From NCBI RefSeq assembly GCF_054482595.1, contig NZ_CM137008.1: a stretch of 64,000 bases of DNA. The stretch is one strand, 5' to 3'. The position numbers were made by a program, and so were the translations under genes. Below are positions 20,750 through 42,797 of the stretch, one piece after another (position 1 is the stretch's first letter; each line of letters opens with the position of its first letter). The notes beneath the pieces are model-generated. The model searched no databases, was not told the DNA's origin, and worked only from the letters and a program-made list of their open reading frames with translations.

Positions 20750-20922
20750 AAAGTTCTTTGACGTTGCATTGCTGGCGTAAATGTCAGCAATGCAGCATTT
20801 CCTCACGATTCTCCTTTGACGATCGCACTTTTTGCTCGTTATGATGGCGTCGCTAGCCTCAGTAAATCCTTACTCCGGCGGTGCGCAACCCGTGCGCGTG
20901 AACCACTATCTGAATGCTCATC

Positions 20923-40151: not shown

Positions 40152-41240
40152 TCACGGCAGGCGGTGGCGGGCTTGATAATAAGCCTGCCAGTGAGCTTCT
40201 TTATGTGTGGCGACACGCTGTTCGAAGTAACGGCGCAGACGAGCGCGATCTTCTTCGTTATCTTTGACGATGGTTCCGGCAATGCAGTCCACCAGATCGG
40301 CTGGCTCACCTGCGCGATTCGCTAAAAACCAGGCGCGGACGCCCACGGCGTGGGCCACGTTCACGGCTTCAGCGGTGGACATAATCGCTGTTAGTGTATC
40401 CATTGACGTTTTCTTTTCGCCGTTGGCACGCAGATCGCGGAAGGTGCGGACCAGTAACTCCAGTACCGCGTCAGGCACTTTATGCGGAATACCGCTATGG
40501 GCCAGCAAACGCGCCGAAGCACTGGCGACAAGCTCCAGCTCCTGGGCGAAATCCATAATCGGAAAGACAGTTTCAAAATCGAAGCGACGCTTTAGCGCAG
40601 CACTCATTTCATTGACGCCGCGATCGCGGGTATTGGCAGTGGCAATAATATTAAAGCCTTCTCGCGCATAGAGCTGACTGGCTTCACCAGTGAGTTCCGG
40701 CACCGTCATCACCCTGTCAGAAAGCATACCTAACAGACAGTCTTGCACTTCCAGCGGTGTACGCGTTATCTCTTCAAAACGGACGATTTTGCCGTCGCGC
40801 ATTCCCTGGTAAAGCGGGGCAGGGACCAGCGCTTCCGTTGATGGACCATGATTGATAAGCAGGGCGTAGTTCCAGCCGTACTTGATTTGATCTTCGGTAG
40901 TAGATGCGCCGCCCTGGATGGTTAACCCGGCATCGCCGCTAATAGCGGTTACCAGTAATTCAGACAGGAGAGATTTTGCGGTGCCAGGTTCCCCCACCAA
41001 CATCAAACCGCGTCCGGTGGCAAGAGTGACTAACATACGTTCGACAGCGGAGGGACTAATCACCACTTTACGGCTAATATTTTGCGCGCTATCGCCAAGG
41101 ATAAAAGCACGGGCCGCAGGCAAACTTAACTGCCAACCGGGCGGGCAAGGTGCGTTATCATTTTGTTTTAATTTTGCCAGTTCATCGGCGTATAACACAG
41201 CAGCAGGCGGACGCTGCAGATGATTATTCTGCGGTGACAT
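40152..41240 (-). CDS. yehL: MoxR-like AAA+ ATPase
   Basis: ATG at 41240 (MSPQNNHLQRPP…, 362 aa); Walker A GEPGTAKS, sensor-1-like ATANT read directly. Confidence 0.85.
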   Translation of the reverse strand: MSPQNNHLQRPPAAVLYADELAKLKQNDNAPCPPGWQLSLPAARAFILGDSAQNISRKVVISPSAVERMLVTLATGRGLMLVGEPGTAKSLLSELLVTAISGDAGLTIQGGASTTEDQIKYGWNYALLINHGPSTEALVPAPLYQGMRDGKIVRFEEITRTPLEVQDCLLGMLSDRVMTVPELTGEASQLYAREGFNIIATANTRDRGVNEMSAALKRRFDFETVFPIMDFAQELELVASASARLLAHSGIPHKVPDAVLELLVRTFRDLRANGEKKTSMDTLTAIMSTAEAVNVAHAVGVRAWFLANRAGEPADLVDCIAGTIVKDNEEDRARLRRYFEQRVATHKEAHWQAYYQARHRLP

Positions 41241-41351
41241 ATATTCATCCCTGAAATGTATTAATGAAATAAACGATATTTTACGCGCAATAAATGTTTG
41301 GCTCATTAGTTGTTTGAGCGAAAAATATCTGGAAAGCAGATCACAGTAAAT

Positions 41352-41434
41352 AAAAAAACCTGCTGGTGAGGCAGGTTCTTTTATTTACTATTTTCAGGCC
41401 TAACACCACAGCCTGTGCAACATCGTGTTCCAAC
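41352..41434 (-). ncRNA. orzO: Antisense sRNA antitoxin of the first zor toxin copy (OrzO/OrzP type)
   Basis: Minus-strand sigma70 promoter (-35 TTGCAA 41469..41464, 17-nt spacer, -10 TATAAT 41446..41441); terminator hairpin cctgctggtgaggcagg (41359-41375) followed by U7 on minus strand; 5' 19 nt complementary to the toxin leader. O versus P copy assignment is from memory and uncertain. Confidence 0.55.
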
Positions 41435-41440
41435 GAACGA

Positions 41441-41491
41441 ATTATAACCACGGCTGGACCCCGTTGCAATTAAGATAATGAGATTTATAAT
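41441..41491. promoter_or_regulatory. Back-to-back divergent promoters of sRNA and toxin mRNA sharing one palindromic -35 hexamer
   Basis: Plus strand: -35 TTGCAA 41464-41469, 16-nt spacer, -10 TATAAT 41486-41491; minus strand uses the same TTGCAA with -10 TATAAT at 41446..41441. Confidence 0.5.
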
Positions 41492-41672
41492 CCAGACCGT
41501 TGGGACGTTGCGCCGGATCGAACCTATTTCAAGTCCTGGCTACCGGACGGGTGGTGCTTCAGGTGGTGCCCTGAGCCGGAGTGCAACATCGTGGTCCAAC
41601 ATACGTAAACCAGTATTGACAGGCAGTGTAAGGGTAAGGTGCTGGTGTTGCGCTCCTTAATAAGGAGAGCGG

Positions 41673-41762
41673 ATGGACTCGCTGACACAAAAGTTAACCG
41701 TGCTCATTGCTGTACTGGAGCTATTAGTAGCTCTGTTACGGTTGATTGATTTGTTGAAGTAA
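41673..41762 (+). CDS. zorO: Type I toxin, 29 aa (MDSLTQKLTVLIAVLELLVALLRLIDLLK), ZorO/ZorP family
   Basis: Not in ORF track; AAGGAG Shine-Dalgarno 5 nt upstream; ~175-nt leader from predicted TSS; sequence recognised as Zor toxin. Which copy is zorO and which zorP is not certain. Confidence 0.8.
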   Translation: MDSLTQKLTVLIAVLELLVALLRLIDLLK

Positions 41763-41784
41763 CGGGCAAATTGAAACGCATCTA

Positions 41785-41812
41785 AGGGGGAAAACCGCTT
41801 CCCCCTTTAATA
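41785..41812 (+). terminator. Rho-independent terminator of first zor toxin gene
   Basis: gggggaaaaccgcttccccc hairpin followed by TTTAATAAAAT. Confidence 0.6.
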
Positions 41813-41961
41813 AAATGATTACTGTTTTTATTAATTCATCATATAACTCATTTTTATTTATAAATTCATCGATTTTATATTCAACGCACCATTTGACCGG
41901 GATGTGAATATTTATGGTGGGCTATTGGCAAAAAATATCTGGAAAGTAGATCGCAGAAAAT

Positions 41962-42042
41962 AAAAAAACCTGCTGGTGAGGCAGGTTCTTTTATTTACTA
42001 CAGTGACGCTAACTTGCTGATTGTGCAACATTTCGTACCAAC
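41962..42042 (-). ncRNA. orzP: Antisense sRNA antitoxin of the second zor toxin copy
   Basis: Same architecture as copy 1: -10 TATAAT at 42054..42049, -35 TTGCAA 42076..42071, terminator hairpin 41969-41985 with U-run; 5' 18 nt complementary to cognate leader (42190-42207). Confidence 0.55.
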
Positions 42043-42048
42043 GAATAA

Positions 42049-42099
42049 ATTATAACCATATCCACACTCCATTGCAATTCAGTGAGTGAGATTTATAAT
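42049..42099. promoter_or_regulatory. Second copy of the divergent sRNA/toxin promoter pair with shared palindromic -35
   Basis: TTGCAA 42071-42076 flanked by TATAAT on plus strand (42094-42099) and on minus strand (42054..42049). Confidence 0.5.
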
Positions 42100-42280
42100 C
42101 CTGCCCGTTGGGAGGTTGTGCCGGATCGGACCAATTTTAAGTCCTGGCTGCCGGACGGGTGGTGCCGCAGGCGGTGCCCTGATCCGGAGAGCAACGTTTC
42201 GTACCAACATACGTAAACCAGTATCGACAGGCAGTGTAAGGGTAAGGTGCTGGTGTTGCGCTCCTTAATAAGGAGAGCGG

Positions 42281-42370
42281 ATGGACACGCTGACACAAAA
42301 GTTAACCGTGCTCATTGCCGTACTGGAGTTATTAGTGGCTCTGTTACGGTTGATTGATTTGTTGAAGTAA
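42281..42370 (+). CDS. zorP: Type I toxin, 29 aa (MDTLTQKLTVLIAVLELLVALLRLIDLLK), ZorO/ZorP family
   Basis: Not in ORF track; second tandem copy 608 bp downstream of the first; differs by Ser3Thr; AAGGAG SD present. Confidence 0.8.
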   Translation: MDTLTQKLTVLIAVLELLVALLRLIDLLK

Positions 42371-42393
42371 CGGGCAAATTGAAACGCATCTAA

Positions 42394-42418
42394 GGGGGAA
42401 TACCGTTCCCCCCTTTAA
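42394..42418 (+). terminator. Rho-independent terminator of second zor toxin gene
   Basis: gggggaataccgttcccccc hairpin followed by TTTAAG. Confidence 0.55.
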
Positions 42419-42479
42419 GAAAGCTATACTCGTCATACTTCAAGTTGCATGTGCTGCGACTTTAATTATCTAGAGTATA

Positions 42480-42797
42480 TTATTCTATTTCTTGGTTGAA
42501 TATATTCTGTAGTTTACGATTAAAAATTGCTATTACAGTTTCAGGTGATTCACCTCGTAATTTCCGCTCATCAATACACTCATCTCTTATATAAATCAAC
42601 GCATCATTTATTAGCGGGTCAGCATCTTCTCGATCACGTTGATGAAATGTTGAACGTAGCCGGAATCGCTCCAGTCGATAGACGGAACCTGTAAATAATT
42701 CAGAGCATTTATGGATCTCAAGTCTGAAGGAAAACGGATCTTCAGGTACAGGGACCTCATAATCGTAAATAGCAACCAGCTCTTTTTGCACGATCAT
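42480..42797 (-). CDS. yehK: Small protein of unknown function
   Basis: 105-aa ORF 61 nt downstream of yehI on the same strand; recognised as YehK. Confidence 0.75.
   Translation of the reverse strand: MIVQKELVAIYDYEVPVPEDPFSFRLEIHKCSELFTGSVYRLERFRLRSTFHQRDREDADPLINDALIYIRDECIDERKLRGESPETVIAIFNRKLQNIFNQEIE

Follow-up and report, generated by a model that had tools for sequence, protein, structure and literature searches.

The window analysed here is a stretch of 64,000 nucleotides (contig NZ_CM137008.1 of RefSeq assembly GCF_054482595.1), in which positions 41340-42420 are the tandem zor/orz type I toxin-antitoxin locus of E. coli, situated in the yehL-yehK interval. The locus consists of two units that repeat with a period of 608-610 bp, and very probably each of the two small RNAs is specific to the leader and the toxin of its own unit. 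It is flanked on the left by a minus-strand ORF with its end at 41240/41306, which is yehL according to the annotation of matching genomes, and on the right by the 105-aa yehK (42480-42797) and then by the 1210-aa yehI, named from the same source. [quoted passage not shown]

Over positions 41250-42450 (1201 bases), the window has 100% identity with E. coli XH990 and 99.2% with an O157:H7 chromosome. About 10 SNPs per 1.2 kb separate it from O157:H7, none of them in a seed or target, and the sRNA seeds, leader targets, promoters and toxin sequences of the O157:H7 genome are identical to those of the window. The Rfam covariance model RF02083 (OrzO-P) matches the window twice, both times on the minus strand and above its gathering threshold of 60 bits. 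The 41250-42450 stretch carries no RefSeq/PGAP feature for zor or orz in matching complete genomes and NCBIfam holds no model for the 29-aa toxins; zor/orz is therefore invisible in standard annotation, and the assignment of ZorO and ZorP to their family rests on identity to the published sequences. Other Rfam matches on the orz terminator, all below gathering (STnc370, Thr/Trp leaders, MIR9563, BTnc005), reflect the terminator hairpin only. A sub-threshold match to isrH, a Salmonella sRNA model, lies just 3' of zorO (42425-42479, minus strand; 20.8 bits against 45, E = 0.004) and is probably meaningless. Elsewhere in the window, and unrelated to zor/orz, the Peptidase-S11 RNA motif (RF03039) is found at 20838-20918 on the plus strand with 72.8 bits (gathering threshold 34.8).

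Small RNA ends and the parts of the two units

The Orz start sites were mapped by primer extension and the sRNAs are about 85 nt long (Fozo et al. 2010, PMC2887945); their V1 region, at +9 to +11, reads GAA in OrzO and ACG in OrzP (PMC3919570). In the window, the minus-strand -10 boxes (TATAAT) have their last base at 41441 and 42049; 41434 and 42042 follow 7 nt further on, and only starts at these last two positions put ACG and GAA, respectively, at +9 to +11. The initial annotation had taken the repeated segments for the very 5' ends of the sRNAs, which the -10 spacing and the placement of V1 confirm. From the triplets obtained with these starts, copy 1 is zorP/orzP and copy 2 is zorO/orzO, the P unit preceding the O unit in the window. 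The RF02083 model begins at sRNA +8, leaving the first 7 nt of each seed (41428-41434 and 42036-42042) outside its matches, so that sRNA ends taken from Rfam would misplace V1.

In copy 1, the orzP gene (41352-41434, minus strand) has a predicted length of 83 nt to the end of its U-run, is matched by RF02083 with 99.9 bits over 41352-41427 and folds into a 5' seed, a small hairpin and a Rho-independent terminator, the stem-loop of which (41357-41377) was called on the plus strand, with the adjacent U-run on the minus strand. Its seed (sRNA +1 to +20, GUUGGAACACGAUGUUGCAC; 41415-41434, minus strand) includes V1 (ACG, 41424-41426, minus strand) and an unpaired A7 at 41428. The divergent orzP and zorP promoters (41441-41491) share a palindromic -35 box, TTGCAA, at 41464-41469, with TATAAT -10 boxes at 41446-41441 for orzP (minus strand) and at 41486-41491 for zorP (plus strand). 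By homology with zorO, the 5' UTR of the zorP mRNA would extend over 174 nt (41499-41672, plus strand); it contains the predicted OrzP binding site at +83 to +102 (GUGCAACAUCGUGGUCCAAC; 41581-41600, plus strand), in which the G at 41594 faces A7 of OrzP as a mismatch, and the RBS AAGGAG at +164 to +169 (41662-41667, plus strand). The toxin ORF that follows (29 aa, MDSLTQKLTVLIAVLELLVALLRLIDLLK; 41673-41762, plus strand) encodes ZorP, a hydrophobic protein that is ZorO with the change T3S (PMC11264685). A GC-rich hairpin 3' of zorP (AAGGGGGAAAACCGCTTCCCCCTT; 41784-41807, plus strand) is probably its terminator, a role that we infer, as the terminator scan missed this hairpin and gave no call there. 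The zorP leader has a G at 41575 (+77), within the EAP region and just 5' of a conserved GGAGUG, where the other sampled P-type units have a T, and a few more SNPs relative to O157:H7 are found in the zorP leader and discriminator.

In copy 2, the orzO gene (41962-42042, minus strand) was delimited from its RF02083 match (88.8 bits over 41962-42035), -10 box and fold, with a predicted length of 81 nt. Its seed (sRNA +1 to +18, GUUGGUACGAAAUGUUGC; 42025-42042, minus strand) includes V1 (GAA, 42032-42034, minus strand) and U13 at 42030, which lies in a G·U pair. The divergent promoters (42049-42099) share a TTGCAA -35 box at 42072-42077, with -10 boxes at 42054-42049 for orzO (minus strand) and 42094-42099 for zorO (plus strand). 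The 174-nt zorO 5' UTR (42107-42280, plus strand), mapped to the window from PMC5397157, contains the EAP region at +73 to +102 (42179-42208, plus strand), within it the OrzO binding site at +85 to +102 (GCAACGUUUCGUACCAAC; 42191-42208, plus strand), and the RBS AAGGAG at +164 to +169 (42270-42275, plus strand). The zorO toxin ORF (29 aa, MDTLTQKLTVLIAVLELLVALLRLIDLLK, beginning MDTLTQ; 42281-42370, plus strand) is also followed by a GC-rich hairpin (42392-42415, plus strand), which we infer to be the probable zorO terminator.

In both units, the sRNA and toxin genes point away from each other, with the -35 TTGCAA and a TATAAT -10 box on either side; these promoter elements are reported to be conserved in 99% or more of the zor/orz loci (PMC11264685). 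The published zorO UTR is 174 nt long with the RBS at +164 to +169 (PMC5397157), and with the zorO transcript beginning at 42107 AAGGAG and the OrzO site fall at their published places: the V1 triplets, the UTR length, the RBS and the end of the EAP (+102) have exact counterparts in the window. The RBS, inside GCGCUCCUUAAUAAGGAGAGCG, is paired in the MFE folds of both leaders. Relative to the ATGs at 42281 and 41673, the OrzO target (42191-42208) lies 73-90 nt upstream and the OrzP target (41581-41600) 73-92 nt upstream, respectively. Identity between copy 1 and copy 2 is 67% in the target and 33% in the middle of the sRNA, against 99% in leader +103 to +174 and 96% in the ORF; the divergence of the two window copies is concentrated in the pairing parts, with differences at sRNA +6 and +9 to +11 (V1) and at the mirrored leader positions.

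Pairing of the seeds with cognate and swapped leaders

With the sRNAs encoded on the minus strand, a direct repeat of the seed in the leader amounts to antisense pairing. In copy 1, the segments 41416-41434 (tgcaacatcgtgttccaac) and 41582-41600 (tgcaacatcgtggtccaac) are present as the initial annotation had given them, with one difference (T at 41428 versus G at 41594); the single mismatch stands, and the claimed length of 19 nt has to be extended to 20 nt (41415-41434 and 41581-41600). In copy 2, the sRNA segment 42025-42042 (gcaacatttcgtaccaac) was correctly located and the leader segment gcaacgtttcgtaccaac is present too, at 42191-42208 and not at 42190-42207; this 18-nt repeat has a single difference, A at 42030 versus G at 42196. 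OrzP +1 to +20 would pair with zorP +83 to +102 through 6 bp, an A·G mismatch at +7 and 13 bp, that is 19 bp, and OrzO +1 to +18 with zorO +85 to +102 through 18 contiguous pairs, as the difference between 42030 and 42196 yields a G·U wobble at OrzO +13 that leaves the duplex uninterrupted. Among 500 dinucleotide shuffles of 41340-41680 (341 nt), no 19-nt direct repeat had more than 16 matches, against 18 observed, which puts the repeat far outside what chance would give. Searched in the 64-kb window with at most three mismatches, each seed matches itself and its own leader only (expected 0.01 and 0.07), and neither matches the other copy.

We computed seed duplexes between the first 22 nt of each sRNA and leader positions +70 to +115, as well as cofolds in which each entire sRNA was combined with the processed (delta-28) and with the full-length mRNA; these were used because duplex prediction with whole sRNA and whole leader over-extends, ignoring intramolecular structure. 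The cognate seed duplexes reach -34.0 kcal/mol for OrzP/zorP (6(1)13) and -31.3 kcal/mol for OrzO/zorO (18 contiguous pairs), against -18.9 kcal/mol for OrzP/zorO (5(1)2(2)8, 15 pairs) and -24.4 kcal/mol for OrzO/zorP (5(2)2(2)9, 16 pairs). In cofolds with the delta-28 mRNA, the cognate pairs bind with net energies of -25.4 and -20.3 kcal/mol and the swapped ones with -9.0 and -11.6 kcal/mol, and the full-length mRNA gives the same ranking, cognate stronger than swapped. The gap between cognate and swapped pairs is 7-15 kcal/mol for seed duplexes and 4-18 kcal/mol for full-length cofolds. Cognate and swapped energies are thus unequal, with the cognate stronger, and together with the pair counts they favour cognate-only repression in both directions. 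The prediction of cognate-only repression made by the initial annotation is accordingly supported by the energies, by the natural covariation described below and, for the action of OrzP on zorO, by published experiments; the 15 pairs found here for OrzP/zorO equal the published "15 nt", and OrzP carrying the O-type V1 gives 5(1)12, also as published (PMC3919570). On paper, the swapped duplexes are still fairly stable (-19 to -24 kcal/mol, 15-16 pairs), and the computed energies would be compatible with some possible cross-talk where the sRNAs are abundant.

In the MFE fold of the full-length zorO mRNA, the 5' end (+1 to +13, GUUGGGAGGUUGU; 42107-42119) pairs with the OrzO site at +85 to +102; the helix uses the conserved flanks CCAAC and GCAAC and leaves the variable centre in an internal loop. 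We propose this helix for zorO only, as the MFE fold of the zorP leader lacks it. In zorO, the predicted helix would fit the data on exposure after processing and a single-stranded V1 target. The 5' end of the zor mRNA (42107-42119; also 41499-41512) resembles the Orz seed, which is accounted for by the need of both to pair with the same target. Both RNAs begin with GUUGG and also include GUUGC, which suggested that the sRNA might have come from an inverted copy of the mRNA 5' end; this idea was dropped, as the stretches that separate the shared -35 from each -10 box are unrelated.

Natural alleles and related systems

The comparison covered ten further E. coli loci and one genome scanned per species. 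A third allele occurs among the sampled E. coli, with P, with O or alone (sRNA GUUGAGAUGCCAUGUUGCA, target GUGCAACAUGGCGACUCAAC); we take it to be the published Q type. A 2024 survey in mSystems described a third type, zorQ/orzQ, along with an orphan OrzPmg expressed in MG1655 (PMC11264685). Both share the architecture of the window units, and the window itself has no Q unit. In the matrix of predicted energies for P, O and Q (3x3), the diagonal stands out, with -31 to -34 kcal/mol for cognate pairs and -16 to -24 kcal/mol for the others, and the three types would by this measure be mutually orthogonal. E. coli EC12 (locus L011, at about 360-385) combines a seed variant, GUUGGGGCGCCAUGUUGCA, with a Q-type target, and in CH10508 (locus L012, at about 545-560) the P-type leader has CCAGC in place of CCAAC at its end, changing U2-A to U2·G. 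Among the five distinct seed/target allele pairs, 95% of the cells are paired and both-sided (compensatory) changes are seen at sRNA +5, +6, +9, +10 and +11; the covariation score was reached by none of 500 shuffles, and pairing was lost when the partner was slid by 1-3 columns.

Outside the sampled E. coli loci, complete zor/orz units occur in E. whittamii (P and O in tandem) and in Escherichia sp. E1V33 and MOD1-EC7003, all with the same seeds and targets as the window. The K-12 lineage, sampled through its derivative NEB5-alpha (locus L005, at about 650-720), has no zor and an orzP seed and -10 region identical to those of copy 1; this orz-only remnant is the published orphan OrzPmg (PMC11264685). 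A match in Calothrix was rejected as a chance match, with neither a Zor ORF nor orz.

The arrangement has parallels in other type I systems. As in zor/orz, the sRNA and toxin genes of tisB-istR-1, shoB-ohsC and dinQ-agrB of E. coli are divergent, the 5' end of the sRNA pairs far 5' of the RBS, the leader is long, 5' processing activates the mRNA and the sRNA is thought to compete with a standby site (PMC5397157); however, their sequences are unrelated to zor/orz and tisB/istR has no tandem orthogonal alleles. The ibs-Sib genes resemble zor/orz in having near-identical copies in one genome, with short variable regions that allow discrimination of the own toxin (cited in PMC3919570), but the Sib RNAs are cis-encoded and fully antisense with two recognition domains, whereas the Orz RNAs are trans-acting, come from a divergent gene and have one domain of 18-20 nt.

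Mechanism of discrimination and its meaning

In the model that best accounts for the locus, each unit has two divergent sigma-70 promoters with one common palindromic -35 box, from which a leftward transcript, an Orz sRNA of about 80 nt, and a rightward transcript, a zor mRNA with a 174-nt leader, an RBS locked in a hairpin and a 29-codon membrane-toxin ORF, would be produced. Pairing of Orz with the leader would block translation and lead to RNase III-dependent decay, without Hfq. Because the units differ at +6, +9 to +11 and the mirrored leader positions, each Orz would form a long duplex with its own leader only and would repress only its own toxin.

Much of this scheme comes from published experiments with the zorO/OrzO pair of EDL933, the seed and target of which are identical to those of window copy 2, by plasmid overexpression in a K-12 background with zorO as the sole target. 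OrzO rescues cells from ZorO and its first 18 nt suffice when grafted to OhsC or IstR; the rescue is Hfq-independent and requires RNase III at high toxin induction, whereas at low induction OrzO rescues a delta-rnc strain (PMC3919570, PMC5397157). [quoted passage not shown] OrzP, expressed as well as OrzO, fails to rescue cells from zorO (Wen, Won and Fozo, NAR 2014, PMC3919570). In the same study, exchanging the 3 nt of V1 exchanged specificity, OrzO with ACG failing and OrzP with GAA working, and a compensatory zorO V1 mutant restored repression. Repression needs 15 continuous or 17 discontinuous pairs, and 16 discontinuous pairs (5(2)11, 6(1)10(1) or (1)5(1)11) give none even at low toxin induction (PMC3919570). 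By analogy, zorP/OrzP would work like zorO/OrzO; its natural duplex, unlike that of zorO/OrzO, carries the mismatch at +7.

Discrimination could also be mainly kinetic and positional, a short single-stranded contact at V1, and especially at +9, nucleating a kissing-type interaction, so that the copies would be orthogonal by their differing nucleation site and not by weakness of the whole swapped duplex. We consider this quite conceivable, if somewhat short of an even chance. Position +9 is uniquely critical: the duplex 8(1)9 abolishes repression and 6(1)11 and 10(1)7, with equal pair number, repress fully, and prediction places both V1 and its target in single-stranded regions (PMC3919570). 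Energy alone leaves the failure of the single +9 mutant, with 17 pairs remaining, unexplained. In our OrzO fold V1 is partly looped, with +9 paired and +10 and +11 unpaired, and the variable target centre is bordered by the two conserved flanks engaged by the mRNA 5' end. Total pairing matters too, however, as the published requirement for 15 continuous or 17 discontinuous nt indicates, and nucleation at V1 refines specificity by cognate pairing and does not replace it. The initial annotation was right that the two pairs diverge in the middle of the duplex; its statement that each sRNA pairs poorly with the other leader is incomplete, specificity being partly positional, since a change at +9 abolishes repression and mismatches at +7 or +11 are tolerated.

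Orthogonality might instead be one-sided or leaky, with OrzO partly repressing zorP and the tandem copies incompletely insulated. OrzO/zorP is indeed the strongest swapped pair (seed duplex -24.4 kcal/mol, cofolds -12.6 / -11.6 kcal/mol), with 16 possible pairs including a 9-bp block; its 5(2)2(2)9 duplex is nevertheless broken by two internal loops, and by the published rule 16 discontinuous pairs give no repression (PMC3919570), so that OrzO on zorP should fail and we hold such leakage to be unlikely. That the direct repeats are inert leftovers of tandem duplication, without regulatory role, has next to nothing in its favour: the whole unit has been duplicated, with its 608-610 bp period, but the repeat lies within each unit and not between units, is absent from shuffles, co-varies across alleles, is identical in other Escherichia species and has been functionally dissected, the published rescue and compensatory-mutation data refuting this possibility. 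Specificity of each sRNA for its own leader and toxin remains the preferred explanation.

The cognate duplexes are themselves imperfect, at 41428/41594 in copy 1 and 42030/42196 in copy 2. Three perfectly complementary versions, with the zorP leader, orzP or the zorO leader repaired, were looked for in 5,426 complete E. coli genomes; another such version would be orzO with 42030 changed from A to G, which gives C13-G. An exact match was found in none of 3383 matching records for the repaired zorP leader, in at most 2 of 3047 for the repaired orzP and in none of 3316 for the repaired zorO leader, the remaining matches having at least one difference each. The +7 mismatch and the +13 wobble are identical in E. 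whittamii, Escherichia sp. E1V33 and MOD1-EC7003, and sRNA +7 is unpaired in four of the five allele pairs. By the three repaired versions searched, the imperfections of the cognate duplexes appear to be fixed.

Copy-specific pairing, V1 as its determinant and the absence of OrzP cross-talk on zorO are already known: the 2014 experiments, which asked this very question of cross-talk, showed the specificity of the antitoxin for its own toxin mRNA, which makes the observation in the window a rediscovery, and in 2024 the pairing region was reported to be highly variable across E. coli, "which may prevent crosstalk" (PMC11264685). As a discovery it consequently matters little. It does show that a reading of the sequence alone recovered a true and experimentally validated regulatory feature, and the analysis fixes window coordinates and allele names where RefSeq is blank and Rfam omits the first 7 nt of the seed. 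The points brought out here are the predicted lack of OrzO action on zorP and the apparently fixed duplex imperfections. Tentatively, and with more doubt than confidence, we suggest that the unpaired +7 of P and Q and the G·U at +13 of O are selected and not noise, the locus being made of three orthogonal, deliberately imperfect pairs; if this is true, the imperfections could tune the hold of the antitoxin on the toxin, or the position at which RNase III cuts.
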